DNA of 61,645 nt, the filler included, from Hausera hauseri (taxonomy: Eukaryota): assembly GCA_046269625.1 (NCBI GenBank). It is 11 parts of 11 records of this genome, joined end to end, with 100 filler letters (N's around TTAATTAATTAA, not from the genome) between each part and the next. Parts side by side here need not be neighbours in the genome. Positions count along the whole stretch, not along the records: positions 9,963 to 14,966 come from JBJURY010363817.1; 10 more parts are not named here. One strand, given 5' to 3'. The notes beneath the pieces were generated by a model. That model saw only the letters and a list, made by a program, of their open reading frames with translations, was not told the origin of the DNA and searched no databases. The translations under genes were made by a program, and so were the position numbers. The stretch's first letter is position 1, and the number at the start of each line of letters is the position of its first letter. Below are positions 6,650 to 59,040 of this stretch, in pieces.

Positions 6650-7768
6650 CTAGGCCCATTTAAAATTTTCTTTGAAATGTGTGTTGATTTTAAGGTTACG
6701 TACATTACCTATGAAACCAATTTTCTTTTCTATCGGATTATCACATACGTATGTATTCACTTCATGACTATATATGTTCTCCCTGGACTTGAATATCTTT
6801 AAATCCAAACCAGGTGTTATAAGATTCAATTCATAATTTTCTCCCAATCCCCAAGTTCCCTCCCCAAATATATAACCATAAGAAAAAACATTTAATTTAA
6901 TTTTGCATTCATTCCTAGCCATTTTTATCGGAGTGCTCCTCTCCGGGGGACTCTGTCCACCTTTAATTATCGGTATCATAACATGCATACTGAATTTATC
7001 AATCACACCATCCCCGGCAACACCATTGGGAACGAAGGGGGAATAACGACAGGAAATCATAATATTATCATAACATATCACATTACCTAACGTTCTCTCT
7101 TTCACACAACTCATCAGACTTTGAAATACGACTTCCAATACAATGTCATGCCCATCCGACTTTACGTTTTCGATTTCTAACATTTCATTGAAGATTAGAT
7201 ATTCCGCAAATATTTCTCCTTTCTTTTTCCCTCTGTCTTTGTTCCCCGGGGAACGTCTAAAAAAATTAGATAATTGACCAAATTTTAACATTCCAATAAC
7301 AAGATATATAAATTTATACCGATGAGACTCTTTACTTTCAAACGTAACGAATGCAATTCTTCTCTTTCTTATTATTTTTGGTAAATGTGAATGAAGCGTA
7401 TCAAACATAGTTGACCTTTCATAAGTACAACTCTTTTCCAAATCATCTTTAATAAATTCCATAATACGATTTAGGACAACTTCCGCCTGATCTAGTGGTG
7501 GATCATAATGAGCTTTCTTAAGTTTGGAAATGTACGATTTGTAGAGTAAATTAGTTAATTGGGACAGAGACAGTGATTTTATCTTTCCTTGTCTTTCCTG
7601 TCTGGAATTTTCTACTTTTCTCGGAGAGATCCTACACCCATACTCTCCAATTTCTTCTGCACTAATTGGGATATAAATTTTGTCAAATTTCCCTATTTTT
7701 TGCATGAAATTTGATTCTTTCCTATTTGTCCGTAACAGGACTTTAAAAACAAACAGTTTGAAATTCAT
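6650..7768 (-). CDS. Intact 372-aa intronless protein of unknown function
   Basis: Long uninterrupted ATG-initiated ORF in AT-rich DNA with globular-protein composition; no family recognised. Confidence 0.65.
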   Translation of the reverse strand: MNFKLFVFKVLLRTNRKESNFMQKIGKFDKIYIPISAEEIGEYGCRISPRKVENSRQERQGKIKSLSLSQLTNLLYKSYISKLKKAHYDPPLDQAEVVLNRIMEFIKDDLEKSCTYERSTMFDTLHSHLPKIIRKRRIAFVTFESKESHRYKFIYLVIGMLKFGQLSNFFRRSPGNKDRGKKKGEIFAEYLIFNEMLEIENVKSDGHDIVLEVVFQSLMSCVKERTLGNVICYDNIMISCRYSPFVPNGVAGDGVIDKFSMHVMIPIIKGGQSPPERSTPIKMARNECKIKLNVFSYGYIFGEGTWGLGENYELNLITPGLDLKIFKSRENIYSHEVNTYVCDNPIEKKIGFIGNVRNLKINTHFKENFKWA

Positions 7769-9720
7769 ATTTTATAATATCATTAATTTAATATTTTTTC
7801 CATTTTTCATCAATTCTAATTCTATAGTGATTAATTCTTAGTGATATATTTTTATATAAAACTTTGTGGTAAACCCATTCAGCCACTGAAGAAGTACAGG
7901 CGAAAATTATCACGATGTATTATTAATTTGATCAATCTAACGATAATTTTGAATGAAGAAAATTTTCTAAATTAAATGACCAAAGTACATAGTACATTAC
8001 ATTTTGAAAAGGTAGCAAACCCGGCTTCATTCGCCATCTAACCGAGATTTAAAAATGATTTTTTTTGAAATGTATAAATTTTAATAATTTCCAAATTTGG
8101 TCTATAAAGGCAGACATGAATTTTTTCATCAATTTGTGTACAATTGTAATTTTCTGTTCTTTCTCACATACATTTCTTCATTTTAATTCCAATTGGGTTT
8201 TGCTGTTTTGATGTTTCTTCTGGTAATAATTGGTTCATAAAACAGATTCCTGAAACGCTCAATAGTTTGTTTATATATGATACAGTTTCTTACACTTTTG
8301 ATCACCGCCTTCATTCCCCCCGTCTCCACGAATGTCGCCAGGTATTCCTTGCATTCTCGTTCATTTATCGACACATTTTATTTTTGCACCATGCATATCG
8401 TCAAACACTTATTCAATCAAACCCAACCCAGCAACCAATTATTTTAATACAAACAGTACAACCAAACATACGAACATACATATACATACTCCTAAATAAT
8501 ACGCATATATCTATATACATATTTATATTATATACAACTCTATACCCCCTTCAAACGTCTTGAAATTGACTGGATTGCCCAACTAAACAATTGGGTTCCA
8601 ACAGTAACAGTATTTTTATTTTGTAAAATTAGTTATACAAATATAGAATTTCCCAATTTTGACAAATTTTAGAACTTAATTCAAATGTGTTTTGTGACTT
8701 AACCATACAACTTTCGAGTTAAAATTTTTTATGGCTTATAGAGGAAGATCTCGGCCATCAGATTCCAAAGCTTCCACCAAGTTAGCATGAATATGAATAT
8801 GTAAAAATTGCTTTTGAAAAACATTCCCTACCCTTAAAAGATGAATGCACAAAATAAAAGAGAAAAGAGAAAAAAATAAACTAATTACTATTGAATTGCG
8901 TTAAATGATTAGAGACGAAAGGTATTTGCAATATTACAAGGTACATACAAAGAGATGAATGAGAATAAGTTCAATGAGATGAATCAACTAAACATAAGTA
9001 AAATGTTACAATCAAATATCAACTGATTAAAAAGAAAGAATACACTATACGCAAGTCGAAAATGAACACATCAAATCAAAATTGAACGTCAAATGTTATT
9101 GTTCTATATCCCACTGTAATGACTGGAGCATCCTTTAATGATCCAAATCGACACTTTCATGCGAGATTCTTGTGTATAGAAGGTCTTCTCTGTCTGGTTT
9201 CTTTCCTTTGGGGACTCTTTTCACGGGTTATTATTGGCATGTTATTTTTTAGTAATAGTAGAGATTTTAGATCCATATTTCCATAATTCTTTTCTAAATG
9301 GTCTATGCCAATACCTCTTTTTAGTCTCAATTGCAATCTGGTGCTGAGTCAACACCAAAATTTATGGTAACTTCAGTACCCTATTGTCCTTCAAGTATGG
9401 GATAAAAATATATATATTCTCCAATTTCTGGTAAATAAAACTAATTAATACATTTTCTGAACTCCATTTATATAGAACTGAGGAGTCTATTTTATTGACA
9501 ATAAGGCCTCTGTACCTCATGTATGGGAACTGGTAAGTGTAAATAATTACACTGAGTTGATTCCAAAATTGAAAACGATATTTTTTCACGAATAATACAT
9601 TTTCTATTCGTTTTGCCATTTTTATAGTCTCCGAATCTACGGTTTGTGTAGTTTGATTGTTTTTTATAAGAGCGTTATTCCAGTTGTTATGTTCAATTAA
9701 TTAATTACTGTCTTCTGCAT

Positions 9721-9862: not shown

Positions 9863-9962
9863 NNNNNNNNNNNNNNNNNNNNNNNNNNNNNNNNNNNNNN
9901 NNNNNNTTAATTAATTAANNNNNNNNNNNNNNNNNNNNNNNNNNNNNNNNNNNNNNNNNNNN

Positions 9963-12900
9963 ATATCCATAGACATAGCTTGCATAGGTCTATCTGGTAC
10001 GTCGATAGGTTTTAATTCTGCTATATAGTTTTTCACTTTCCTCTGTTTCGTTGCACAGACTTCACAAGCGTCCACCCAATTGTTTACATCGATATAAATG
10101 CTTGGCCAGTAGTACTTATTCAATATTCTTTCTAATGTTTTCTTCCATGACATATGTCCAGCCAAATGTGAATCGTGTTCAGCCATTAATACTTCTGTTC
10201 CTAATCCTTTTGGAATGACTACCAGTTTCCGTCCTTTGCGTTCATAGTATAAGATGTTGTCTTGATTCGATGCATAATATTTATGTCCGTGTCTTTGTAA
10301 GTGTTTCTTAAGCTGCCGTCCCTTTAGCATTATATCTTATTCGGAAAATTTGATTATTTGTTGGATAACCTTATCCTTAGCTTGTTCTGAAGTAATTTTG
10401 ATTGTTTTATTTAGTGTTAAGGTCTGTTGTCGCTGGACTAATTCTTCGAGCTGAACCTTCTTCATGGTCGTAATTGTACTTGTTTTTGTTTTGAGTCTTG
10501 ATAAAGCGTCTGTGTCTATATGTTTACTTCCGGGTTTGTATTGAAATTCGATATTGTATTGCGAAATTTCCTCAATCCACCGATTTAATCTACATGTTGG
10601 GTTATTAGCCCGTCCTTTCAATGTTGTGACAGCTTTGTAATCGGTAACTATAATGATTTTCGGCCCATAAACCTAGACATTAAAATGTCTTAAGGCTTCT
10701 TTTACAGCTAATGTTTCTAGTTCAGTGACTGAATAGTTTTTCTCAGCTTTCTTAAGCGACCGTCCTCCATATGCAATCGGATGCTCCAATTCTTCGTCTT
10801 CTCGTGTCTGAGCCAATTCATAACCTATTCCTTCTTTACTTGCGTCTGTTTTAATTATAAATGGGAAATTAAAATCGGGGTATTTTCAACACCGGTTCAC
10901 TTGTTAAAATTTTCTTTATTTCGTCAAATGCTTTCTGTTCGACATCAGCCCATTTCCATTTAATGTCTTTTTTCAATAGCCGATATAACGGCGCATTTAT
11001 TTTCGAGTTGTCTAATACGTAAGTGGCATAATATCCTCATAATCCTAACCAATGTCTTAATTCTTTCTGATTCTTGGGCTCCATACAATCCGATATTTTG
11101 TTTAGTAGAGATTTGTCTGGTTTCGATCCTCCTTCTCCAACTATATGTCCGAGATAAAATACAGCATTTTGCGTCCATTTACATTTCTTTGGGTTTAGTT
11201 TTAATCCTGCCTTTTTCAATCGCATAAGAGTATTTTCGATGTCCTTTAGATGTTCGTTTTCCGTTTTTGATTCTATCATTACGTCGTCTAAATAATGGTC
11301 TAATTCAATTAGCATTTTATTCATCATTCTGGTAAAAATAGCTGGGCCGGTTGTTATACCGAACGGCATGACATTAAATTCGTAAACTCCGTCGTGTGTC
11401 TTGAACGCTGTTTTATAACGATCATCCTCTTCAATTTTTACTTGCCAGTATCCGGATTGTAAATCTAGTGTGGTAAACCATTTTGCACCTTATAGTCTGT
11501 CTAAAGCTTCTTTTACTGACGGTAGTGGAAACGAGTCTTTCATCATAAGCGTGTTTAGGGCTCCTTAGTCTATACAGAATCTGTGTTTTGTGGTACCCTT
11601 TTTCTTGACCATAAGTATTGGCGAGTACCAAGATCGGTAGCTTGGTCGTATTATGTCAGCCTTTAACATATGTTCAACCTCTTTGGTTATTTCCGGCCTT
11701 AATGAATGCGGTGGTAAGTACCATTTAGGCATCCTCTGTTCTTCCAAATCAATTTCATAATTGGAGCAAGGTTTCTTTTTTAATGAAATCGTTAATCTTA
11801 AGGTTTTCGCTCTATTTATGTCTTCTTTATTTTGGGCAATAATCGACTTGTATTTACATAGTAATTCGTAAAACTGGCAAAACGCGTCTGGTGAAAACTT
11901 TGTCTCGACGTGAAATGGAAATTCAGCATATTTGTAAGGTTTTTCTTCAGTCGTTATTGCTGACACCTTATAAGTATGACCCAATGTAGTATTGGCGTAC
12001 AATTTTACGGGAGTTGGTGCATTATTTACTAATCTGGTTGGTACTCTTCCTGTCGTTACTCTTGTCAAAATGTTACTGATTAAAATATTTAGATTAACGT
12101 CTTATTGCTGCTCAAAATATACTGGTTGGTCGTCTTCTTCGCGGATTTGAGCATAAATTAGCATTTCTATTCTGGGCGGAATATTTTCGTCGACAGGGAT
12201 CCATACTTCTCTTTGCTTCCTTTCTTTCATTGTTTTAATTACTTTCACTGGTCCAAGTTAAAGTAATTTTTCAGTCTGTAAGTTTATTGCGATATTAGGT
12301 AATTGCTTCAATATGTCACATCCTAATACTACGTCATCGGTAAGTTGATCCATTATAGCAAACTCATGTCTAAGGATTTGACCCATTAACTGGACTAAGG
12401 GACTCCATTTAAATTTTGGTTTGGATTCTTGCCCGAAGGCTCCTAAGCTGCCTGGGTCTTATGATTATGCTGGTTGCAATTGCTTTCAGAGTGTCGGCTG
12501 TATCGATTCTAATTTGATAAACGATTTCTCCGATCCGGTGTCTATTAATGCATATACTTCCCAATTTTCGATATTAACTTTTGTGAAGGACCTTTCTTTC
12601 ATAACTGATCCGTAACAACTCGACACGTCTTTTGGTTGTTTAACTGAAGAAATTTTATGTCCGTTTATCGTTATTTCTGGTGAGGAAATGATATTATCGC
12701 TCTGTTGTTTCAATTCTTCGTTAGGGTATAAGTCGTTAACTGCCAGCTTATTTGTGTTGTTCCTGATCAATAGTTCTTGTACTGTTGGATTTTGGAACGA
12801 TTTCGCTCCCTGCGTTCCCAATACTGTTGATCTTGTTTCTATATTCCGAGCTATCCTCGGTGAGTACAATATCCTATGGTCATCTTGTGCTCGTCTTTGA

Positions 12901-13277
12901 TTAGTGATCTGAATTTTCTTTAAGACTCCATACTGTCTTGTTCCTTCATAAGGATCTTCATAGCTGAAGGGTTTCTGACAAAATGCTGATCTGTATGACA
13001 TCATAGATGCTTTGTCACGATCCTCGTATATCGGAGCTGTTGGCAGCATGATACGTAAGAGTGCTCTAATCACTGAATACATTCTATGTCTATTTTGTCC
13101 AAGGACTGCTTCTTCTCCCTTAGGCTTATCATCACTGGAGTTAGTTCTTCGGGTCGTTGTTTTCTTGGCCTTGTGTATTAATCGAAATATGGGTCTTGCT
13201 CGCCGTTTATAGTTATAGTAGCCGACATGGCGTTCAACATCATCTTTCCATCGATTTTCTTCATAATCCTTAAGCAT
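9963..13277 (-). pseudogene. pol: Ty3/Gypsy pol (linker-PR-RT-RNaseH-integrase N-terminus), decayed
   Basis: PR ALIDTGSEKS; RT MPFGITTGPAIF..YLDDVMI; RNase H ..RLNRWIEEISQYNIEFQYKPG..TDALSR; integrase zinc finger HDSHLAGH..CEVC. Order PR-RT-RH-IN, with several stops and frameshifts. Confidence 0.95.
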
Positions 13278-14966
13278 TTTACGAAGGGTGTGATAATTGC
13301 GGTTAAGATCTTACAGGAAAATCCTTTTAGCGTAATTATTTTGTATCCATTTATAACTGTTTTGATCACCGCCTTTACTAATTGTACCATGAAATAGATT
13401 GCTAAGAATCCAGATGCAGCTTGTTTAAAAATTAAAAATCTTCCCCACATTTTGGATAGTATTTCTGTGGTTACTTGCTGGTAGTGGTTCGCACCAAGTA
13501 AGGATTCCCATTTAGCCTGGTAGCGGGTATCGTCTACTACTGATGCCATAGCTCGGTTTAATTCGTGTGTTCGCTGTCGTGAAAAAGCGAGAAATTGTCG
13601 AAAAGCTTCGATTTCTTTTGGTCTGTAAATGCCTTTTTGAGAACTTGTCGTCTGTAATTCCTTTTGCTAAATTAGTCCCAGTTAGTTTTTTAGGAATGGT
13701 AGTGATGCCTCCATTAGGTAGGCTACCCCAATCTATTTCGCTACGCCTAAACATCGGTTCACCAAACTTGCCATACAATCTTTTAGAATGGTTGGTTGTG
13801 TCGCATTATCGAGCAACAGTCTAGTGAGAGGCATAGCTAAGCGCGGATATTTTGATAGATCACAGGAAGTTCTTGTATGCATCGTTTTTCCTTAACATTA
13901 ATTGGTACGTCTCTTTTCTCGCATTCGTATGTCAGTAGAACTTCTCCAGTAACTTAACCAAAAATTCCTTCTTTAATGGGAATAACTGGTGAGGCTAATT
14001 CCGGGTTTGCATAAATAAGAGATAATTTTGTCCTAATAATTTCCGTATCTAATTTGCAATCGTTAGTTATCATTTTGTGGTATAGTTCTGCTATTCCAAC
14101 CTGTCCCTTATAATAGAAATAATCGTCTTTGTTTTTCAGATAATCCTCGATTCGAATGTCTTGTGTTTATAGGTTGTATGTTTTCGCGTTTATCTCCGTT
14201 TCTGCGGCGAAGAACGCTTCATAATTAGTGGTGAACATTACTACTTTGCAGAGTGAAATCGTTTCCTTTTTTATGAATTTCAATCCATGTTGATCAGAGA
14301 TTAATATTGTAGGTGTGTGATGCTCTGATACGTCTTTACGTGCTCTTGAACTGATGTCGGATTTATCTACGTATTGTTTCCCAGTAGTTTCGTTAAATTT
14401 CAATTTTTTGATCTTAATAAAATTACAGGCTTTTCCCGTGGGCGGTTCCCATATAACCAGAGAACTTCTGAAGGCACAAGTTCCGTCTTGTATGTGACAT
14501 TTTTTGATTCTCCGTATACTGCTTAGTAACACTACGGAATATTACTTTTTGGATTTGAATTTCCGATTCATAGAAGTCTACTACTACTACGTTTTCTTTC
14601 AATCCTTTTCCGGTATCGTATTATGTTTCACTACAGTGCCCGTTATGCATATCTAGCCTTCCGGCTACTATCTTATATGCTCCTATTATTTTTCCTAATT
14701 GCATTTCCAATTCCATGCTACCCCATTTCGGTCTTCCAGTTTCTCGGGCTTATTTACAATGTTGCCTTTCCAAATTCATGGGAATTGGAGGAGTTATTGG
14801 TTTAATTATTGAGGAGTGTCCGTGCATTAGTCCACAATGAAAAATGCTACGAGATTGTTTCAGCATACATTCCATACCATCCAGAGATATAAATGCTTGT
14901 TGTTGGTATAGGAAATAGTTCTTTTCTTTTGTTTCCAATTTGTATGGTCTGGTATCTTCAAATGCA
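13178..14966 (-). pseudogene. env: Chuvirus-type (class III, gB-like) envelope glycoprotein, decayed, 5' truncated by gap
   Basis: Motifs recalled from chuviral G: ECMLKQSRSIFHCGLMHGHSS; CHIQDGTC..VIWEPP..C; ISLCKVVMFTTNY; ELYHKMITNDCKLDTE..NPELA..GEVLLTYEC; C-terminal hydrophobic WGRFLIF..ASGFLAIYFMVQLVKAVIKTVINGY..GFSCKILTAI. Confidence 0.8.
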
Positions 14967-15066
14967 NNNNNNNNNNNNNNNNNNNNNNNNNNNNNNNNNN
15001 NNNNNNNNNNTTAATTAATTAANNNNNNNNNNNNNNNNNNNNNNNNNNNNNNNNNNNNNNNNNNNN

Positions 15067-17117
15067 GATCGTAGGAAAATTCTAAAGTACACAAAAAGGA
15101 CAACAATGGAAATTTAGTACCTATGAACTATGTTTCTATAGCCTCATGAAATATGCTCTAGAATTCAGAATCGCAGAACTTCCAACCAAACTCATGTTCA
15201 AAATGACCTGGCAAACAGAAGTAATGAAACCCCTACCACCATTACTATGCATACAAAAGCCTTCAGAGGATGAGATAGAACAGAATGGAGAATCTTACAG
15301 ATTGGTTCCAGACGGCCGAAATACTCGAATTTTAGCCGTAAGCTATGGAGAAAAGGATGATGGATGGCATATACCTATTGAATTCTCTATTCGGAGGATA
15401 AACGGAGAAGAACTTATAAACAAAGTAATCGCGCCTCGAGCTAGAGTAAAGGATACCTTTCCCGGCGTTACTGGAATTACGAAGGTACAGCTCGAAAAGA
15501 GAAAAGATTTCTTGGAACTCCAGGAAGACATAAGCCATTGTTTATATGGATACATTGTTACCAGATTTCGAGTGTACGAAGCGTTAAAACAGCTAGGAAT
15601 TAGACAGGAGTATATAGCCGGAATTCGTGAACTGAGTCGAAATATAGAGGTTGTAGGTCAAGCGCAAAATACTTTAATGAGGAAAAGAGGGTGTCTGCTT
15701 CCGTCAGCGTCGCGTGAACCACAATTTAAGATGAAGTTAGAGGCCATGAATAGCGAACGATTCAAATTTCCTAAACTGATGTCAGCAAGTCTAAGAACAA
15801 GGTTTATAAAAGATATCTATACCTCATTACGATGGGAACATGAGTGAAAACCCAGAAATCTCGTACAGAATTTGATATACGACAACAATCCGAAGGTCTT
15901 GATACAAAAATTCCGAAAAGAGTTTAGCGAGATCCAGTTTATAGGCAAATGGAACCCCAAGAATATAATCGATTTCGAGTAACTATACACAATAGTTTAG
16001 CAGAAACATCAAATAGTCGACAAAAACCGTCAACCAGTCGAGCTCAAGATGACATGGCAGCAAAACTTAATAATCCAGAAAAATGGAGAGGACAAAAGAC
16101 AAAAACCTCCTTTCTAGAATATATTAGCAAAAAAGAAGCAAAACCAGTAAGAGCCAAACGAAAGAAATCAAATCATCATCAAACAGCCCTACACAAAGTG
16201 AACGGATAAACGATCAAACCGAAATACCGATCAGACAAGGAACGAAAGAAAACAAAGAAGACCAATAAAAAGTACTAAACCCAAATCCCTCAAGACGGAT
16301 GCAAACGTCCTTCGGAAGAATTGGGAAGAAGATTTCCTAATTTTGGTCAGGTGAAAGAATACCACCGAATGGTTGTCATGGCCGAATATTATAGCAAGGG
16401 TAAGATTAAGGAAGCGATATTTTATGTATCAACCGTTCCTAGGAGAATAGTAAGTGGAAACGGATACGCCAGAGAAGATACCACTATTGGCAGATATCTA
16501 GCCCCAATATTCCAATCAAAGAATGGTACTAACCGATTGACAATCCCCGTGGATACCAAAGTTCTAATTCACCTAAAGAGGCAATACAAGAAAACTGGAA
16601 TACCTGATTTAGATAAGCAAGACGTAGGCGAGTGGACCTTAGTCACAGTGTCAGATGACACTAAAAAAAGTTCTATAGACCCTAAACAGAAACATTTATA
16701 TGGATACTTATATCAAGATAAAAAAGACTAGTATTCGAACGAATAGAAGTTGATGAAAACCTCGTAGACATAGATGGAGGAGAAAAGGAAGAGTGCCCTA
16801 TTTGCGACGCTAATCTCTACCAAGGATTCGTATTGTTGGACAATAAAGACTGTACTCACAAGTACTATAGATACTGTTTAGAAACATGGACCCTAAAAAA
16901 CGGGAAAACGACGTGTCCTGTATGTAGAGCCGAAGTTACCAGACTGAAATACTATGCCCATTAAGAAAATAAAAAGGTAGTAGAAATGCTGCCCCAAAAA
17001 CCCACTACATCCTACAACTTTGACTTACAATCTCCACGAGACGAATCGGATTCGGAAACGGACTCACGTGGACGAATGAACCGACTGCGCGGCACATCCG
17101 AGAGTGCCGTTCAGTGA
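15067..17117 (+). pseudogene. Long unknown LTR-element ORF with C-terminal C3HC4 RING finger (16794-16925) and acidic tail
   Basis: Same-strand fragments 15146-15847, 15949-16209 and 16321-16731. After a frameshift in an A-run it reads ECPICDANLYQGFVLLDNKDCTHKYYRYCLETWTLKNGKTTCPVCR, then an internal TAA, ..RDESDSETDS..; the last stop overlaps the PPT. Confidence 0.75.
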
Positions 17118-19467: not shown

Positions 19468-19797
19468 TCAATTGAAAATCGTACGACGGCGTTTTCGTTT
19501 TCTCGTCATTAAGCCACTTCCAGCGAATTGGTTTTTGATTGATTCAAAGACTTCCGGTGCAGCGCTTTTTATTTCCGACAAGGCGTGTTTCTTCATTGAT
19601 GGTAAAATCGATTTATTTTCATATAGTATGTCCTGTGCTGTTTTTGCTGCCACGGCACAGATACGCTTCAACAGCGGAAATGCTAAACGTGCCAATGTAC
19701 GCAACCATCCAAAGCCGTACTGTTTACCGACGAAATACGGCAGTTCCCTGCCCTTATGCGGATTTCTGTAAATGGAAACGATTTTAGAATCAATCAT
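19468..19797 (-). CDS. Small Polinton virion protein (pVI/pX-like: protease site, amphipathic helix, basic NLS)
   Basis: LPYFVGKQYGFG followed by WLRTLARLAFPLLKR; FAGSG then RKRKRRR; lies between penton and MCP. Confidence 0.75.
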   Translation of the reverse strand: MIDSKIVSIYRNPHKGRELPYFVGKQYGFGWLRTLARLAFPLLKRICAVAAKTAQDILYENKSILPSMKKHALSEIKSAAPEVFESIKNQFAGSGLMTRKRKRRRTIFN

Positions 19798-20843
19798 ATT
19801 TTTGTTGTTGTATTCGATGGAAATGAATAGCTAGACTGGTTGCGGTACCGTAACGAAATTCAATAAGGTAATCCGCGTCATATCGGATATTCACTTCAAT
19901 ATTATTTATAGATGTAGATGTCACAGGTATGTATATTGGATTATCGAGCTTGACAGTGACATTGTCACCGGAAGTATACTTGCTGCTTTCCGGATAAATT
20001 GCTCGGAGTAGCGGTACACGTACTCCACCGATAAAAATCGGTTCGGTGACATTCACATAAATGTACATTTGACTTAGTCCCGTTTTCAGTTTGGGTTTGA
20101 GTGTTGCAACATTTGCCACCTCCGCCCCTGTCTTCGTATATGATGTCTGAAACTGCTGTTTTTCAAAACCCAATACCATGGCCAAAGCGTTGTCTAATGA
20201 AATGTCGACAATATCCTTTTTTAGTTCAAATTTAACGTACCCATTTGTATCTGACTGGAAAACTTTAAATATCACCTTGTACTTTTTATTAGAAAATTGT
20301 TGACCGAAATGTGCTACAGATTCGCAATAGACATTGTTGTATAGATAAATTTCACAGTTGTCTGATAATGTACGGGACTTAATCTTGAAGCAACAACATA
20401 TTCAATTTTAATATGTTGACCTTTGTACTTTGTATTTTTAAATCCAAATTTCTGCGCCATCTCAGAGGACTCAAAGGTAATAGTAAATTCAAAATCTGCC
20501 ATAAATGTAAGTATTCTCCTAAAATAAAAACACCGATCTTGCCGCATACACCGTAATTTGTACTGGTCGTGCAAATGGCCGATTCTCCAGCTATTATTTT
20601 ATTGTCAGTAAGTCTCAGAGGACAAAAATGTGTTTTTGTTTCAGTAACAGTCTTGTTGTACGTTATTTTCATACTACCTTTGAATGTTACCGGTGCGTAG
20701 GGAAAGTTAAATTCCGTCCGTGCAACTTCCCATTTTCCAGATAAATCCAAAGGATTGTTCCAATCTACAACGTATTCATTAGCGGAATTGTTCGGACGAG
20801 TCGTCGGACAACTGTTGCTCGATAACATCATGTAAATACTCAT
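19790..20843 (-). pseudogene. Polinton minor capsid protein (penton) paralogue 2
   Basis: N-terminus IYMMLSSNS..PNNSANEY..PLDLSGKWEV..EFNFP; C-terminus MYIYVNVTEPIFIGGVRVPLLR..PIYIPV..INNIEVNIR..LAIHFHR. Frameshifted. Confidence 0.9.
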
Positions 20844-20888
20844 GATCTCGATGATGGTGATGATGGTAATGATGACGCAGTTTGTTTA

Positions 20889-38426: not shown

Positions 38427-38538
38427 GTATAAACAATGACGGTAGGTATATGATGATTCAGTGATATGGGTGCATGGTTTTCATCATTTTGCCCCTGTTT
38501 ACCGAATCCTTCATTTACGTTTTGTTCTAATTGTTGCA

Positions 38539-39585
38539 ATGCAAGCAAATCCGGCACCATCGACGACGACAACACCGATGGACGACGTGTGGTTTAACCC
38601 TCGTCATCCCGTCGGGTATACTGGCGACGACAAACTGGCAAAGACTGTCAAACAGACTCGGCAACAGACCCTACGTTGGCTCGGGAAACAGTTAGCATAC
38701 AAACTAAACAAACCGATAAGAAGGCGGTTTCCAACTCGTGCATATCGTGCTGACGGTGTAAATAAGGTATGGAAAATGGATCTGATGGAAATAATTCCGT
38801 ACGCCAGCATCAACGATGGGTATGGGTACGTGTTGACATGCGCTGATGTGTTTAGTCGTTTTGCACATGCAATTGCTGTGAAATCTAAATCCGGTAAAGA
38901 GATTACCGACGCTGTTCAGATGCCGATTCAACAACAACAACCGAAGCATTTACAAACGGATTTAAGTAAGGAATTATACAAAGCCCACGTTGCAGCGGTC
39001 TTGAAACGGTTCGGAGTAAACCACAAATAAAAGGCTGCACTTGTTAAACGATTTAATCGAACATTGCGCGGTCGCCTAAAGAAATTCTTTACGAAGCAAG
39101 GCAGCAAACGCTGGGTAGATGTGCTGCCGGATATTGTTCATGCATACAATCATTCGACACACCGTGATATCAATGGATTACGGCCGATTGACGTAATCAA
39201 TGATTTGGACATGTGGCTCTATCAAAACCGACAACAGACAATTAAATGCCCAAAATATAAAATCGGTGCTTACGTACGCATTTTGAAAATAAGTACGACG
39301 CCATTCATTAAGAATTTTAATCAGAACTGGAGCCATGAGGTTTTTCGAATTTCAGCAATCAACACAAAACAAACACCTGTCATGTACGTTTTAAAGGATG
39401 AAAAGGGTTATGAAATACGCGGTAAATTCTACGAACAGGAACTGCAGGTACTGCCCGAAAAACCCGATGTGTATCGTATTCAGAAAATTCTACGTTCATG
39501 TGACAAAGGTTCGAATGAACAATATCTCGTCAAGTGGCGCGGACCCACTGCACCGAGTTGAGTATTTGCATCACAGATTGAGTGA
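38539..39585 (+). pseudogene. Polinton retroviral-like (rve) integrase with chromodomain
   Basis: WFNPRHPVGY..WKMDL..YVLTCADVFSRFA..LQTDLSKE..RFNRTL..YNHS.H..NWSHEVF..KFYEQELQ..YLVKW. Confidence 0.93.
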
Positions 39586-42562: not shown

Positions 42563-45553
42563 CAAGCCTCTATTGAAATCCTTTAACATTAAGGATTTTA
42601 TTATTGAGGACTATTCAAGGCTCATTAGCGAAGCCGAAGAAGGCCAGGACAAGAAGAGCGGTTGGATTTTAGCAACAATAAAGGGGTTACTTGTGCATGT
42701 GCACAAGTATTCTCCCAGGAGAGGCAGCTTCTACATACCGCTTCCTGATTGGATAGTTAAGGAAAAGGCATGCACCAATGTCCACAATTAGGACAGCATG
42801 TGCTTCATGTATTCTATTTTGTCAAAACTAATCCAGGATCAACATAATGCTTCCCGAGTTTGGATATATGACAAAGTGCAGCATACATACGACTTCAGCT
42901 GTATTTCATTCCCGCCGACCCTAGATGAAGTCGTGAAATTTAAAAGCTTGAACAACATCTCCATCGACATCTTCGGATTGGAGGAGGACAAATTTTATTC
43001 CTTACATGTGTGCAAGGAGGAATTGGAGGATCATAGGGATCTGCTCCTGCTAGATGATGGAGAAACGAGGCATTTCATCTGGATCAAGAATTTTGAGCGC
43101 CTCGTAGGATCCCGAATATCCAAGCATAAATCAAGACTGGAAATATGCAAGAGATGCTTTACACATTTTAATGGGGAGAAAAGCTGGTGGAACACAGGAC
43201 GTAGTTCAATTCAAAATATTGCATCCGAGCAGAATTCCCCAAGGAGGATTACCTGGAATTCAAGGAGTTCGAGAAAATGCAGAAAGTGCCGATTTTCTTC
43301 TATAGTGATTTTGAGGCCATTCTAAGCCCAGTTCACAGGTGCAGCCCTAATCCCTAACATAGCAGCACAACAACATACCAATATCATGAACTCTCATCAT
43401 ATTGTATGTATGCCAAAGCAGTGGACAGTGAACGATTTTTATTAAGAGGGCTAGACGCAGCAGCACATTTCATGAAGAGATTAGAAGACATGGCTTATAG
43501 GCTTGAAAACATGCTTCACAGCATAAGGATACAATGAGTATGTCGAAGCAGCAAGAAGATGAATGGCGCAATGCAACAACATGTTACTTGTGAGACAAGT
43601 CCTTCACCAAGGATAATTATAAAGACAGGGATCATTGCCATTTTACAGGCACATATCGAGGAGCAGCATGCAACAACTGCAACTTACGCTGAAAAACATG
43701 CACATATGTGTCTGTAGTGTTCCATAATCTTAGTGGCTATGATTCCCACTTCACTGTTTGGGAACTGGGTAATAATGAGGGAAACATCGATTCATAGACA
43801 GCTTCCGCTTCATCAGCTCGTCACTGGATAGTTTAGTGAAGAACCTCCTTGTAGAAGAACTCAAAAAGACAAAGAGGTTCTTCCCCACTGCATTTGACCT
43901 CGTCAAGAGGAAGGGCCTTTTTCCCTATGACTATATAACGTCATGAGAAACACGGGATAAAAAAGCATTACCGGACAAGAAGGACTTTTATAGTCAGTTA
44001 TCATCCAGTCATATTAGCGGTGCTGACTATGAGCATGCCCAAAGAGTACGGCAAACCTTCCAGTGCAGGACAATAGGGGAATACAGTGATATCTATCTTC
44101 TCACAGATGTGCTGCTGCTTACAGATGTCTTTGAAAGCTTCCAGGATGTGACCCTTAAGACCCACAAGTTAGATCCAGCCCATTTCTTTACAGCTTCAGG
44201 AATGAGATGGGCGGCGATACTGCTCCATACCGGCATAAGGCTCCAGATATTGAAGGATTACAATATGGTCCTCATGGTTGAGAGGGGTATCAGGGGTGGA
44301 ATATGCCAGGCCATTCACAGGTACCGTGAGGCCAACAACAGATACATGGCAGATTATGATCCATCAAAGGAATCCTCATATATATCATATCTGGATGCCA
44401 ACAACTTGTATGGATGGGCAATGAGCAACCCATTGCACTATGATAACTTTAAATGGTCGAGAATCCTGAAGACATGCCAATATTGGACCTAGATCCCACT
44501 GGAGATACGGGGTATATACTGGAGGTGGATGTGGAATACCCACATAGCACCCACACAAGGAATGAGCAGCTGCCATTTCTGCCGGAGAGCAAGAGGCCAC
44601 TAAATGGTAAGCATAATAAGCTGCTCTGTCATCTCGAAACCAGGGAGAGGTAGGTAGTCCACTACATCAATCTCCAACAGGCCATCCAAAATAGACTCCA
44701 AGTCATCAGAATTTATCGGTCCCTGCAGTTTAGCTAGTCCAAATGGCTGAATCCATACATACACCTCAATAATCAGTTTAGGGCCAATGCCAATAAAGAG
44801 TTTGAAAAGGACCAATTCAAGTTGTATAAAAACTCGGTCTTTGGCAAAACTATGGAGAACATCCAGAACCGGATAAACATTGAGCTGATATGTGACAGGA
44901 AGAGAGCAAAGAAACTCATCGCTAAGCTTAACTTCTACAGCAGCACAATCTACACGGAGAATCTGGTGAGCATCCATATGCTCAAGGCATCACTTGAGTT
45001 CAAACAGCCTATATATGTGGGCATGTCCATATTGGATCTATCCAAGACCTTGATGTATGACTTTCATTATAACATCATGGTCCCCACATTCAAGGAGATC
45101 CAGCTAATGTACATGGACACGGACGGTTTCATATACCAGATCCGCACAGATGATGTCTTTGAAAAGTATGCAAAATTGGCGCAGTATATGGATACCTCAG
45201 ACTATCCGAAGGATTATCCAAATTATTCATTTACCAACAAGAAGATCCTCGGGAAGTTTAAAGACGAGGTGAATAGGAAGATCATCACCCGTTTTGTGGC
45301 GTTTAGGTCAAAAATGTACGCCATCGATGTAAGTGGTCAGGTAAAGAAGTGGGCCAAGGAAGTTCAAAGGGCCACATTAGCTAAAAACATTGACTTTGGA
45401 GATTTTGAGAGTGTTGCGGGAGCAAAGTCACAGTCAGCGAGATGAAAAGGATCCAGTCCCGGGAACATCATATTGTTACAGTTGCTCTGCGGAAGAAAAA
45501 TCACGATTGGTTCGATGATAAGAGATATATTCTTGAAGACGGCATTATTGTAA
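42563..45553 (+). pseudogene. Protein-primed family B DNA polymerase (second copy)
   Basis: KSGWIL..RGSFYIPLP..KACTNVHN; RDHCHFTGTYRGAACNNCN; YLDANNLYGWAMS; NSVFGKTMEN; YMDTDGF; GKFKDE; DDKRYI. Confidence 0.93.
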
Positions 45554-50344: not shown

Positions 50345-51670
50345 NNNNNNNNNNNNNNNNNNNNNNNNNNNNNNNNNNNNNNNNNNNNTTAATTAATTAA
50401 NNNNNNNNNNNNNNNNNNNNNNNNNNNNNNNNNNNNNNNNNNNNCAATCTGCCGCAGAAATTCCTTTGTTCACAACCGAAATTTAAACAAATTCTTTCGC
50501 GCCAAATTCAAATTTTTACACGTACCTAAAATCCATACAGTACGCGTGCTTGTGTGTATCCACTTTCTGACTGTGTGTCTCCTATCTCAGCCCTATTAAC
50601 CGTGCGTGCGTGTATCGTTTTGTCTACCCCATGATTCATCCGCGAACCAAAAAAGAATTTTCTTCCCCCGGGAGGGGGCTTGGGGTCATGCGCTCACATC
50701 TACCTACTGGTAGCCAACAACGGGTGCAACAAGCACAGATTTTAAGGCGGCGAGTAGCTTTAATGCAACGTAAAATACATGGCGACCAATTGTTTCCTAC
50801 TCCATTGAATTCACTACCGCAGACTTGAAAATTCTGTAAATAAACCATCTATGAATAATGACGATAATACATGCAATAATGACTTTTCTAAGCAGAAACC
50901 AATGCCTTCAAATATTATTCCCCCAACATTTCAATCTCAAAAATCTCAAATTAAAAATATTTATTCTAATAATGTTAATAGTACATTAAATACCGCTACC
51001 CCAAATTACTTTACTAATCTGAAAACAGCTACGGATGAAAATGTGCGTGAAGATTTTATCAAAAATTTCAACGACTGGCTTGACACATCCAAACAAAGTC
51101 ATTGTCAATCCTCCATTTCAAAACATCCAGTCTGTCAGTGACGACTATATGAGATCAACGAGATTATTTAACAATAATCCTGTGTACATCGCACCTATTC
51201 CACAACAATTACATCCCACTCAAACAGCAAATTCGCTGTTTAATTATCCGAAACAAAGCAATCCTCAATCTGTCAAAGCTGTTCAGGAGTTAGCGAAATC
51301 AGTTCATTTGATGCAAAAACCTCTGGAACGATTTCCAGAGTTGCTATCAATAAAAAAAATTATATTAGATGTATGCATATCGTTACTCCATTATTTATAA
51401 TGCGAAACGACTCTATCAGTGAGAGAGTTGTCAATCATTTGGGTGAGAAGTCGAGGGTGACCGTCAACGCTTCACTGCATCCCCTTTCTCTTCTTATTTT
51501 TGCCCATAACAAACATGTACACACACTAAGTGTTGCATGCAAACATATGGCGCACATCCTTTATTCTGCATTGTCTTCCTTTTTCGGCTCCTCCGACTTT
51601 TATTGCACTCACAATGGCTTGACTCTGTTACATTCTGATTCTGTCATCTTTTGCATCCGGGAAACATTCA

Positions 51671-52690
51671 ATGATATTCACTGTCTATTTTCGCATTCGT
51701 GATGTATCAGACCCTGACCCTTCTGCCGAAAATTTAACCAAAACCAGATATGGTAGTCGTCCTGCCGACCCCACACCAAGTACATCTCCAAATCTACATT
51801 GCACAGATTTTCTTCTTGATAAAACCAATTCTAGTCGCACTTGGTTACAGTTTCATTTGCAATGGCTTAAAGCCAATTATATCACAGACTCCTTTTTGCT
51901 GGCGAAAAGTTTGCTGCTACTACTGCCAGCTAACATCAAGCAGAAAATCAAGAATCTTGCTGACATACTTACTTCTTCAAGCCCATATGACATGCTTTAT
52001 GAATCAGTTCTGAATATCACCGACTCTTCCATTGGCAGCATAATTCAAAAATACTTCAATGAGCATGCCATCGAAAATCAAAATCCATCGGACTTCCGGA
52101 AAACTGCTATCTCTGAACTGAGTTCCTTAGGCGTCACTTCAATAAACAATGCCGATCTTCTTCATCGGTATTTTCTTTCATCGTTGTCAACTTCCATCAG
52201 GGCGCTGCTCACTGTAGTAGATGACTCTGCTGCCCTTGAAAAACTCGCCTTATTGGCAGACCAAAGTTTTGACATTTTGCAGTCTAATAATCCACAACCA
52301 GTAGCTGCAGCAATCGCTTACACAACTTTATACACCGAGAACACTTCATTTTCACAACAATTTCAATTGATACAGCGACAGTTTGACGAGTTACAGCAGT
52401 CGATTTAGCCATTACTACCCAGCTAAATAATCTTAATAAGCCTTGACGAGGCAAAACCAGACCTTTAAGGGAGAAAATCACTTTCAGACACTGCTCGATC
52501 CATTTCATCAGGCCGACGCATGACTTGTTTTTATCACACGCGATTTTGAAGGGATGCTAGGAAGTGTTTTTTGGGTTGTTGGTTGTACAGCGAATGGTAC
52601 GCTATGGACAACCCCATTTGTGTCTATCACAATAAATTTCAGTCACGGACTAGATCATGTGTGCTTGTTTGTAAACATTATAAAAAGAAT
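51671..52690 (+). pseudogene. gag: gag of a CsRn1/Kabuki-like Gypsy element with two CHCC knuckles
   Basis: PYDMLYESVL..QNPSDF..LALLAD; then CFYHTRF*RDARKC..C and CVYHNKFQSRTRSCVLVC. Confidence 0.75.
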
Positions 52691-52849
52691 TTTAGTTTCT
52701 TCTTCTTCGCATCCTCGCACTCACCATTCCTCTTCTTTCTCCAAACAAGTCTTAAAAAACCAATAATGCAACCAGATGCCACGGTACATTTTGGTGCAGG
52801 TAATATTATTCAATCTTCTGGCCGTTTCAACACCGCCTCTGAAGTTTTT

Positions 52850-55800
52850 TTGCTGAAAGCTGATTTGTTATTGGGAGACACATCACACATATACTTTCTT
52901 ATTGATTCAGGAGCTGCCTTTTCACCTATCCCTTTGCCCTTAGCTCCTACATTCAACACAGTTCTCTCTCCTCCAGTTTTCACTGCCTGTGGTCAACCCT
53001 TGAACATTGTACGTACCATAAAGCTGTCCGTCACATTCTACAATCTACCAGGGAAATTCTCTTTGTAACTTCACATAGCCAATATCAGATCGCCCATTAT
53101 AGGATCTCCGTTGCAAATACCAACAAATGCTTACCAGACGACCAGTCGTACACCTTGTCTTCCTCCATTCATTCAAATGTCAATTTGACATGCTGTTTAT
53201 CGGCTGAAAACACACTTAATAATTCATCAATATTTTCAATCTCGTCAAGTGGGACAAATAAATGTTGAAACAATCGGCTGAACCAAATGTCGTTAATAAA
53301 GTATTCAGTGATTCTACATCAATTGCAGACACTGACTAATTTAGTGATATGCCTTCATCATTCTTATCGTTGGGTTCTGATCTTAAATACCATATCAAAG
53401 CTTCTTGTTTCCTCATTCTCAAGAAGGACGTAAATTTCCAGCCGCATTCTACAACTTATCACAACATAGTCACTGAACACCAAAGACCTATCAGACAAAA
53501 GGTAAGGCCATTGTCGCCTCGCAGACGAAAAGCCGTTGAATCAGAGTTTAATGAACTCGAAAAGGCTGGCATAATTCGAAGATCCAAATCACCATGGGCT
53601 TCACCATTGCATGTAATAACAAAGAAAGATGGCACTTACAGACCATGCGGTGACTATTGTCAGTGAAATAATCTAACAGCCTTGTATTCCTAACCTCTAC
53701 CTCTCATAAAGAACATTCTGAATAGTCTTACCAACACTAACACGTACTCCACAACTGACATGCACAAAGCATTTCATCAAATTCCGGTTGCACCTGATGA
53801 TATTGCAAAAACTGCTCTTATCACTCCATTTGGCCTCTACGAATATATCTTCATGCCATTTGGTTTACGCAGTGCTTTCCAAACTTTCCAACAGCACATT
53901 GATACCGTACTCTCGGGTCTGGACTTCGCTCATCCATACACTGATGACATATTAGTTGCCTCTACGTCTGCAAAGCAACATCAAAAGCACCTTAGCATTA
54001 TCTTTCACAGACTACATAACAGTAATTTTCAAGTCAACTTTTCCAAGTGTCATTTTTTTCAAAAACGTGTAAATTTCCTAGGTCACGTAATCACGCCTCA
54101 CGGCCACTCTCCACAACCGGATCGACTGCAACAATTGAAGAACGTAATTCTATCAACGACTACCACGGACATGATAAGCTTCTTAGGCACACTCCACGTC
54201 GTCCACAAATATATACATCATTGTTCTGAGCTCACAGCACCTTTTGCACATTTACCATCCGGAGAAAAGAGGCAGTTGATTCACTGGACTCCTGATTTCA
54301 TCACTACGTTTGACCACTTACGCGATGGCCTAAAAGCTGTCGAAATACTGGCATATCCAAAGCCCAACGCAGATCTTATATTTACCACCGATGCCTTGAC
54401 CATAGCATTTGGTGAGATATTACACCAAATATACAATGGCGTCGATGAACCATTAGAATTCTATTCCAAAAAGCTCACGCAACCCGAAAGCCGTTATTCA
54501 ACATATGATCGTGAGTTACTCGCCATTATTCTGGCAGTAAAACATTTTAAACATCGACTTATATCTCGTCCATTTGTCATTCAAACTGATCACAAGCCTC
54601 TCCTGCACATTATATCATTAAAACAGCCATCACCGAGGCAAGAGCGACATATATCATACCTGTCTACGTTCAGCTTTGTTTTGGAATATATATCAGGCAC
54701 AGATAATCTGGTAGCAGATTTTTTATTGAGGTCGGCTGGGTCCATCACAGTTAAACCGATTTTCTCATCCGAAGTGTTAAAGGAAAATCTACCGTCTGCT
54801 GCCCTCCTTAGTTCCTTCAAATCTTTCGAGATCATCGATGGCATCGCTTATGATACGTCGAACATAGGTAATAAAAAGATCATTCTAGCACCACCTTTAC
54901 AAAAGCCAGCTTTTGTTCATACGCATCCACTCCATCATCCAGGTTCGAAAGCAACCTTTCGCTTGCTTAAACGTCATGTAATATGGCCGTCAATGAGCAG
55001 ATATGTACAGGGCTGGGTTAAGGAATGTGTAGCCTGTCAAAAATATAAAATCAGCAAACATCTTAAACCGCCACTGTACCATTTTCCCTGTACATCACGT
55101 TTTCATACAGTTCATCTTGATCTCGTTGGTTCTTTACCTTCAGACAACGGATATCAACATATACTTACCATGACGGATCGTGCTTCTAGCTGGCCTGAAG
55201 CCGTTCCTCTTCATTCAACAAACGTTGATTCAGTTGCAGACGCCTTCATAAAAATCTGGATCAGTCGTTTTGGTTCCCCACGTTATATAATAACGGAACA
55301 AGGTTTACAATTTGAGTCGGGATTTTTCAAATCACTTGTCAAACGCTTGTGAATATCCAATTTTCATACTACACCATATCATCCTCAAGCAAATGGCCTT
55401 CTTGAAAGGTTCCATCGAACAATAAAAGTTTCCTTAAAAATCTTGGCTGACACTCGTGGTAATTGAACGTCCATTCTACCATTTGTTCTACTAGCTTGGC
55501 GCAACACACCCCCTACCACTACCGGTTGTGCTCCAGCCGAAGCACTCTTTGGGAATTCAATTCAGGCCTCATTTGAGCTTTCCGATCTCGACGACAAACC
55601 CACAGACGAAAATATTCGTGCAGCACAATCTTATTTCGTCGAGTTCAGCTCAGACTCGTTCTGCCGTCTTTTCAACAATAAGAAATCGTACATTCCCAAG
55701 GATTTATACTCGGCCAAGTTTGTCAGGCTGAAGGTTAGTCGCCTTCAGGCTTTAGACCTAAATATGTTGGCTCATACAAACTGTAAAATCTTTCATCTCA

Positions 55801-56898: not shown

Positions 56899-59040
56899 CA
56901 TATGCCAATCGACAGTGCACAAGGTGCACAATCGATCGGTAATGTGTCAGGCAAAGGTACCGTTTCTAAGCACATTTCTGCACATTTCACAAATCAATAA
57001 CTGCATATTGCACTATTGATCAAATAGATTAGAACAAAGTGCTAATCGATAGTGCACATTAATATATAGCGATTGGTGCACTGTGCAAGTACACTGCACA
57101 TGTGCAATTATGCAAAAATCAATAATATCGGTTTCCCGATATTTCCAATATTCATGATTAGCACATGTGATCAGGTGCAATCGGTTGGAAATACGATGCA
57201 CTATACGAATGTGCAATTAGTATTTAAATCTATCGATTGATTTTCGAGTGTTATCGACTCGAAGGTGAGGTCGTGCAGACTTCCAACACGTTTTACTTGC
57301 CCTAAGGAGTGAAAATTCGATTCAACATTTAGCGGGGACATATAGGAAACCGAGTATGCAGATCTCGAATATCGAGTCCAATATTCGAAATTAGAACATT
57401 TTCCCCTTTGAATAGCGAACTTCGAACTTCTCGAAAATCTGACAACGGAATTCGATCCCTCATGTCCGAAAACCTCTTGATGCATTAAAGTTATTCCATG
57501 AAAATGTGCTACATAGGTACATAATCAATATTTCCAATTAAGCAAAATAGCGGGGCTGGATAGGAACCCACATGTAATGAATAGGAATATGATGTCAGAT
57601 ATTCGAATTCCAGCTTCCAAGTCGAGTATTTAGTTATTCGAACTCGAAAACTCGAGAAAGGGTGCATTATTCGAAGAATCTGATGGCTTTAACCGATTCT
57701 CCATGTGATAACAGGGCAATCAATATTGGTGCGGTGCAGTGCACCGCTGTATATTAAAACAGGGTTTAATAACAAGTAAAAAGTACATAAAAAGTACAAA
57801 GTAATTAAACGGTGCTTATTTTGACTGCACAATTGAGGAATGAAATTGGAGGTGAAGCACACTGAAATCAATAAATCTTTAAGCATACACAGATAGGAAA
57901 CAATATATGTAGAATCTGAATCCGATGTTAGATATTCGAAAACAAGTCGAAATTATCGATTTCGATATTCGAACTCGAATACTCGGTTAAGTGCGTATTA
58001 TTCGAAGAATCTGATTGCTTTAGTCGATTCGCCATATACGAAAACCTATTTAGCAATGGAAATTAGCGCGGTTCAGTGCACTGCGCTGTATTAAAACAAG
58101 GTTTAATAACAGGTGCATAATAAATACTATGTAATTCAATGGTGCTTGTTTTAATTAATTGAGTAATCTTAAAAGGTGAAATTGAAGGCGAAGCACACTG
58201 AAATTGATAAATCTAATAGCGCACACAGGTAGGAAACCATATATGAAGAATCCAAATATGATGTCAGATATTCGAATATCGGTTTACGAGTCGAATAGTT
58301 ACTGAATCGAACTCGAAGAATCAGTGAAGTGTGATTCAATCGATTCATTCAATGGTTTCAATTGATTCACCATATAGGAAAACCATATGTAGGGTAAAAA
58401 CGTGCGCAGCAATGTACGCAGCACGTTGCACATTAAATCAACATAATATAAGTCAATGGCTTTTTGTGTTGTTTCACTGTGAATTACAAGGAGATCAAAG
58501 TGAAAATCGATAAATCTTTAAGCAGGGATAGACAGAAAATCATGTATTGGAAATCCGAATGTGACGCTGGATGTTCAAAAAAATGTTCACACGTCGAGTA
58601 TTCATAGACTGGAATATTTGAAAATTGATAAAATCACGGTTTTATGTATGTAAACAAGATAATACCTTGAGTTTGTTAATCATTTTAATCACGTTTCAAA
58701 TTTTTCGAGGTAAAAACAAATTATTCAATTGATGCATTAAAACAAATGCACAAAGCGCAACACGATGACAATAAAATGCAACACGTTGGAAAGTTGTAAG
58801 GATTCATGTGTGTGTTTTAATATTGGAATTGGGGCGGCACGATGCCTCGTCTACTAAATAAACTTTTAAATTTTGCGGATAAAAAAAAATTATGCAAATG
58901 ATGCATTTAAACAAAAGATAATAAAATTAGGCTATAAATGCATTTAAACAAAATGCAGTGCCGAATTTACCCTACCGTTAAAACTATTTATTTTGCTTAC
59001 ATGTTTTTGTATTACTGCATCAATTATCAAATTAAACCTA
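56899..59040 (+). repeat. Terminal/subterminal region of a pPolB element with ~335-bp tandem units
   Basis: GATGT(C/T)AGATATTCGAA recurs at ~57591, 57924 and 58260; homologous to 60170-61645 and (reverse) 35940-36714; lies directly upstream of pPolB. Confidence 0.75.

Follow-up and report, generated by a model that had tools for sequence, protein, structure and literature searches.

Burro and GYPSM1 are giant gypsy elements of planarians in which env sits between gag and pol without a change of frame (Arkhipova and Yushenova 2019, PMC6431247), and errantiviruses with a GAG-ENV-POL order and an HSV/gB-type env are described from Nematoda, Bryozoa and Platyhelminthes (Chary and Hayashi 2026, PMC13524379). 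The proteins of chuviruses comprise a glycoprotein, a nucleoprotein and a viral particle protein (Dezordi 2020, PMC7642597). Two short late-domain motifs connect viral proteins to the ESCRT machinery, P(T/S)AP binding TSG101 and YPXnL binding ALIX (Welker 2021 review, PMC8402826). The papers examined, in their accessible text, do not address by what route envelope-carrying Ty3/gypsy elements, or chuviruses, exit the cell. Late domains normally lie on Gag or matrix proteins, and we know of no recognised matrix protein in chuviruses. On GAG-ENV-POL errantiviruses with an HSV/gB-type env, Chary and Hayashi 2026 cite Sacco 2022.

The locus described here is a decayed Ty3/gypsy element, of the GAG-ENV-POL (Burro-like) type by its layout, with a chuvirus-type, herpes-gB-like glycoprotein (G). 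It lies in a window of 61,645 nucleotides from Hausera hauseri, by which we mean the whole stretch of DNA analysed; the window consists of contigs strung together by spacers. The two late motifs fall within a single contig at 9963-14966, flanked by the spacers N44-TTAATTAATTAA-N44 at 9863-9962 and 14967-15066, which carries the internal part of the element on the minus strand. The contig stops within env at one end and within the integrase at the other, so that neither gag nor an LTR is visible. Intact relatives align by tblastn along the whole contig (14965-9965) in alternating frames, and the element is therefore a decayed copy with several breaks. The stretch is present in one sequencing run (share 0.22), with no RNA run listed, and 17530 contigs of that run match at 80% or more, which points to a large number of related copies.

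Read along the minus strand with stops treated as X in the Pfam searches, the element begins with a glycoprotein ectodomain remnant (13660-14965) that is spread over several frames with stops; it matches PF24664 in two frames, and tblastn covers it in two segments (14965-14471 and 14499-13843). The C-terminal piece of the glycoprotein, P0002 (13181-13666; PF24664, E 1.4e-21), contains a stem helix, a transmembrane (TM) helix at 13408-13352 that forms the single hydropathy peak (residues 87-105), and a weaker amphipathic segment at about 13330-13274. An aspartic protease (PR) with a DTGS motif and in-frame stops follows at 12300-12596 (RVP, E 4.4e-5), directly downstream of env and on the same strand, as in GAG-ENV-POL and Burro-like elements. 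The spacer between PR and the reverse transcriptase (RT) aligns with relatives and has no Pfam dUTPase match. The Ty3-type RT (11139-11609; RVT_1, E 3.7e-33) is in the same frame as the motifs and the protease and also has in-frame stops; RNase H (RH) lies at 10556-10876 (RT_RNaseH, E 5.5e-28), with another frame break near 10880, and the H2C2 zinc finger of the integrase (IN) N-terminus at 9963-10216 (Integrase_H2C2, E 8.6e-17) is cut by the contig end. The resulting order, PR-RT-RH-IN, is that of Ty3/gypsy elements (Metaviridae). Among structures in the PDB, the RT matched Ty3 RT (4OL8, E 3e-52) ahead of caulimovirus-type (8e-40) and retroviral (2e-23) enzymes, in a comparison that contained no BEL/Pao RT.

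Two other element types were considered. ENV-GAG-POL elements with a short Gag, known from Arachnida according to the accessible text of PMC13524379, were rejected, as no capsid domain, CCHC or Gag match was found between env and PR. Troyka, as far as it is described in the available part of PMC12440569, was also set aside; nothing in the window pointed to it, and its defining ends would lie beyond the contig.

Several further features lie elsewhere in the window. Maverick/Polinton-like remnants lie at 32103-34710 and 42797-45445, at 38446-39561 and at 19790-20885; they include a protein-primed polymerase B that carries an endonuclease VII-like insert, a second copy on a different contig, inverted and about 74-85% alike, and an integrase for which a chromo match was weak, and by eye the ORF at 19790-20401 has the look of a Polinton-associated gene. 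A second, unrelated Ty3/gypsy element occupies 51244-55352 on the plus strand, with RT-RH-IN in a frame of 552 aa and an ORF that looks gag-like by eye. A 373-codon open frame at 6650-7771 (minus strand) has no Pfam family and no atlas match above 0.83. A repeat unit of about 335 bp is dispersed in several copies, 65-83% alike and in both orientations (57546-58636, 60380-61465 and 36202-36707). Finally, 752-1069 and 15090-15409 are two copies about 72% alike that overlap a 253-codon frame (15086-15847) without a Pfam match.

The motifs themselves are PTAP, of the TSG101 type, at 13032-13043 (read 13043-13032; residues 90-93 of P0001), and LYPNEEL, an ALIX-type LYPx3L, at 12711-12731 (read 12731-12711; residues 194-200). 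Both fit the consensus P(T/S)AP and YPXnL as given in the available text of PMC8402826. P0001 is a stop-free frame at 13310-12489 on the minus strand that continues into the protease motif LIDTGS, and LYPNEEL stands 62 residues ahead of the catalytic Asp, whose codon is at 12542-12540. The other two minus frames over this interval contain 14 and 29 stops, and shuffling of the 93-codon stretch that leads from 13310 to PTAP left it stop-free in 0.24% of cases, from which we conclude that the motifs lie in the coding frame. When the residues of the 202-aa linker were shuffled 100000 times, P[ST]AP appeared in 0.36% and LYPx(1 or 3)L in 0.34%, and both appeared jointly once. Six-frame counts for the whole window gave two matches to P[ST]AP and four to LYPx(1 or 3)L, and only at this locus did two fall in one ORF.

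The earlier note had read both motifs, at these positions, as lying between the glycoprotein TM and the protease. The positions, strand and single stop-free frame running into PR were confirmed; the continuity with the TM was not, since the TM frame (ORF 13666-13181) differs from the motif frame and one frame break must separate them. The break falls within 13181-13280, TM-frame homology ending at 13280-13259 ahead of a stop at 13180. Assignment of the motifs to the glycoprotein tail of the window copy is thus drawn from relatives. The linker of about 200 aa (12576-13181), the probable cytoplasmic tail of G, has no family match and cannot be aligned to relatives' tails. The same note had named a Gag capsid fold in the linker as evidence against its reading, and no sign of one was found: there was no Pfam match and no CCHC in the linker, relatives' Gag gave no match either (best E 0.18), and in a relative the corresponding tail models as disordered. 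A search for homologues of the linker-PR ORF among longer proteins returned 725 candidates, none significant. The single-sequence model of the linker in P0001 (pLDDT 37) and the best score of an atlas search with the linker (0.81, below 0.9) are each uninformative alone.

Relatives were found by phmmer with the G piece P0002, which contains neither motif. This gave 113 hits, the top ones being polyproteins in which G is followed by an in-frame protease and often by RT-RH-IN. Scans for loci with the G piece or with alignment A1 found nothing in viral contigs, genome contigs or a first metagenome scan; a second metagenome scan gave 2 loci. CCHC knuckles lie upstream of G in the same ORF in P0003, P0009, P0014, P0019 and the locus L002; P0019 also has a Retrotrans_gag match, and one relative has a weak Bcl-2 match ahead of G. 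As an architecture, the Gag independence suggested in the earlier note is not supported, because relatives encode Gag upstream of env; the GAG-ENV-POL order is moreover published, and the absence of Gag from the window copy comes just from the contig stopping within env. In a quick tree of 94 G pieces the window, on a long branch, joined the fused set with an SH-aLRT of only 91.

Several features of these relatives were observed in passing. P0005, P0006, P0008, P0009, P0012, P0019, P0116, L001 and L002 have two to six tandem protease-like D[ST]G domains after G, and the window has one. L001 and L002 show, by eye, extra predicted membrane segments within or after Pol. P0003 (HBK71150.1), a Gag-G-Pol polyprotein, is filed under a Flavobacteriaceae MAG and is most likely animal DNA binned into that assembly.

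The relatives have an internal signal anchor, one strong C-terminal TM and a weaker hydrophobic segment. Given the signal anchor and the single strong TM, with Pol following the tail, the G tail and Pol should lie in the cytosol. A model of P0012 built from a 48-row alignment (mean pLDDT 71) placed its tail, residues 465-584, at pLDDT below 50, with a gB-like ectodomain on one side and a protease fold on the other. By Foldseek this model matched herpes gB at E about 1e-5 with low TM-scores, and it also matched retroviral-type proteases. With PF24664 present in the window and the predicted fold taken from P0012, the window env appears to be of the HSV/gB (class III) type.

We then compared motif content across homologous tails. 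A search with a profile built on the C-terminus of G yielded 117 sequences, from which we excluded 3 same-cluster duplicates and 22 rows that fell short of the membrane-region end or had tails under 30 residues; one very long tail was trimmed to 100 residues. The resulting 92 tails comprise 15 fused ones, with G and PR in a single ORF, and 77 stand-alone ones, which include fragments and named chuviruses. [LIVM]YP was present in 33/92 tails versus 3.2 in shuffles, and P[ST]AP in 13/92 versus 0.7. Fused tails carried [LIVMFH]YP in 11/15 (shuffle mean 1.39), [LIVM]YPx(1 or 3)[LI] in 6/15 (0.28) and P[ST]AP in 1/15 (0.05, p 0.049); YP lay 29-61 residues before the first protease Asp in 12/15, and the remaining 3/15 had no YP at all. 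Stand-alone tails carried [LIVM]YP in 24/77 (2.57 in shuffles) and P[ST]AP in 12/77 (0.56). PPxY was not enriched in stand-alone tails (2/77 vs 1.55) and was marginal in fused ones (2/15, p 0.047), and dileucine motifs were not significant in the 92 tails (9/92 vs 5.2).

Because these first patterns had been chosen after looking at the tails, all words were ranked without a prior. The top 3-mers were LYP, IYP, SAP and PSA and the top 4-mers PSAP, YPLL, LYPT and PTAP; LYP, IYP, SAP, PSA, PSAP and YPLL exceeded the best score of any shuffled set, which LYPT and PTAP alone did not, and reversed decoys were null. The most enriched words in homologous tails are thus the same late-domain-type motifs that had been proposed for the glycoprotein's cytoplasmic tail. 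Leu or Ile followed YPx in 27/47 cases; the x3 spacing of the window was rarer (6/92) than x1 (20/92). PSAP stood ahead of YP in 7/7 tails carrying both, the order also seen in the window. Fifty of the 92 tails, many of them fragments, had none of the three late motifs as scored.

[LIVM]YP occurs 4.4-4.6 times per 1000 aa in tails, compared with 0.28 in the ectodomain and 0.56 in Pol, and the regions upstream of G in 11 relatives held a single motif match, inside a capsid domain. The tails are mostly unalignable, the window tail reaching z of at most 2.4 against the 15 relatives' tails; three fused pairs align at z above 5, so the tails are not fully independent. YP or P[ST]AP was present in 15/24 full-length stand-alone G proteins. 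Ten stand-alone hits were looked up, and 7 clusters bear the names of chuvirus or chu-related glycoproteins. The tail has YP or P[ST]AP in each of the 7, which is not a frequency because the 10 had been picked partly for their motifs. The expectation that both motifs recur in homologues above flanking sequence is therefore borne out strongly for the YP motif and weakly for PTAP within fused elements, where it is rare.

Taken together, we think it probable that the locus is a dead GAG-ENV-POL copy whose ESCRT late motifs came with a captured glycoprotein tail, and that budding of such elements is driven by the Env tail and includes Gag. The pattern of sequence suggests that recruitment of the cellular budding machinery falls to the envelope protein and not to the capsid protein. 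An intact polyprotein would read Gag, internal signal anchor, gB-like ectodomain, TM, disordered cytosolic tail, PR, RT, RH and IN, an order seen in relatives and presumed for the window copy. Its tail would have arrived with the captured chuvirus-type glycoprotein, bringing the late motifs along. PTAP would engage TSG101 and ESCRT-I, and LYPx3L would engage ALIX, these being the established partners of such motifs. Env trimers at the membrane would in this way recruit ESCRT to the bud neck, and the Gag capsid, RNA and Pol would be drawn into the bud, with Pol presumably tethered to the Env tail until the protease frees it. Enveloped particles released by this route would be driven by the Env tail yet would contain Gag.

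Four other explanations were weighed. The motifs might bind ESCRT for sorting of G into multivesicular bodies or exosomes, or for its turnover, and not for bud scission. Cellular membrane proteins such as E-cadherin are described as using the same motifs for vesicle loading (PMC9511404), and endosomal sorting and surface budding are indistinguishable by sequence. The pairing of a TSG101-type with an ALIX-type motif in fixed order, however, and the near absence of both from Gag fit release; the two uses are not mutually exclusive, and we regard sorting in place of release as unlikely.

Retroviral proteases cut Tyr-Pro and Phe-Pro bonds, and the YP, 29-62 residues before the catalytic Asp, could be such a cleavage site at the start of PR; or it could be a YxxPhi endocytosis signal, since YPxL also fits YxxPhi and YPx[LIVMF] occurs in 30/92 tails. 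PTAP would be incidental in both cases. But YP precedes the G-adjacent protease in 12/15 cases and later protease copies in 1/11 (Fisher p 0.001), and G proteins without a protease carry YP too; YxxPhi lacking the Pro is not enriched (30/92 vs 24.4, p 0.08), and YPNE in the window is not YxxPhi. With the enrichment of P[ST]AP left unexplained by both, these two uses of the YP seem to us very unlikely.

Only a slight probability attaches to the proposal that env ends at the stop at 13180 and that the motifs form the N-terminus of a separate Pol, as a p6-like or transframe leader. In its favour, the TM frame closes there, the linker frame offers Met codons at 13277, 13082 and 13049, and the five indels among the differences listed from sibling contigs (40/1074) all lie outside the TM/linker junction; published GAG-ENV-POL elements are also described in terms of ORFs in the accessible text of PMC13524379. 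Against this, G and PR share a single ORF in all 15 fused relatives, Burro env is reported in frame between gag and pol (PMC6431247), and the window copy is broken at several other places within G and Pol. The junction, moreover, has no strict slippery heptamer, only relaxed matches, and in stand-alone G proteins the motifs lie close to the protein's own C-terminus (median distance 17 residues, 24 tails). The least probable reading, that chance alone placed both motifs in a linker that is decayed and evolves fast, can appeal to short motifs picked post hoc from a 61-kb window with 6 matches in six frames, to a degenerate copy and to the rarity of PTAP in fused relatives, but it is opposed by the joint chance of 1 in 100000 for the linker and by the agreement of position, order and type with the family pattern.

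The window copy is dead and belongs to a known class of element; what is of value is the pattern of motifs, and the late-motif signature on the glycoprotein tail looks real and is apparently undescribed. Among the matches listed, we found no report of late domains on chuvirus-type or errantivirus Env tails; subscription literature was mostly outside the search, and absence from print is not proven. The family-wide signature of PSAP followed by LYPxL on the tail of a fusogen lends support to the idea that enveloped particles were made by these elements. More tentatively, and with less confidence than in Env-tail-driven budding with Gag, we speculate that the class III glycoprotein of chuvirus type forms a self-contained module for both entry and exit, in which the tail replaces a matrix or Gag late domain and G alone recruits ESCRT and buds fusogenic vesicles. 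If true, this would explain how chuviruses, with no recognised matrix protein to our knowledge, are released, and why the unrelated Ty3/gypsy and BEL/Pao lineages turned virus-like by capturing this one gene.

Among described systems, Burro and GYPSM1 share with the window an env related to mononegavirus-type fusion glycoproteins directly before PR and a gypsy-type Pol, and the relatives found here share the Burro layout; late motifs are not mentioned in the accessible text of PMC6431247. The in-frame junction of env and pol in Burro is matched by the 15 fused relatives, and the decayed window copy shows one break there. Gag, accessory domains, size and LTRs are out of view in the window, whose contig is cut before them; Burro proper has a giant ORF with BCL2-, BIR-, SUMO- and dUTPase-like domains, the upstream part of which would lie beyond the contig end. 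GAG-ENV-POL errantiviruses likewise have env before pol, a gB-like fold (here from the model of a relative) and a Ty3-type RT; they differ in that the window copy is not intact and in that the tail is not analysed in the available text of PMC13524379, whose main text contains no occurrence of late domain, ESCRT, budding, cytoplasmic or PSAP.

Similar motifs are found on other carriers. HIV-1 Gag p6 has PTAP and then YPXnL just before the protease (PMC8402826), and the analogy drawn in the earlier note holds for motif order and position; it fails for the carrier, which is Gag in HIV-1 and a membrane-anchored Env tail here, with motifs about 100 residues apart, and protease-free chuvirus G has the same motifs. 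NS3 of bluetongue virus is a viral membrane protein that carries PSAP and PPRY and recruits TSG101 for capsid release, although it is non-structural and not the fusogen (PMC7409164). Foamy virus capsids need Env to bud, yet the PSAP stays in Gag (PMC3705263), and the motifs of West Nile E are reported to show no dependence on ALIX or TSG101 (PMC10532540). These three are partial precedents. The glycoproteins of Chuviridae and the env of Anakin BEL/Pao elements (PF24664; Dezordi 2020, PMC7642597) are homologous to the window G and carry LYP or IYP and PSAP or PTAP words in their tails; there, G stands alone with a free C-terminus, whereas in the window type it is fused to the Pol of a Ty3/gypsy element.
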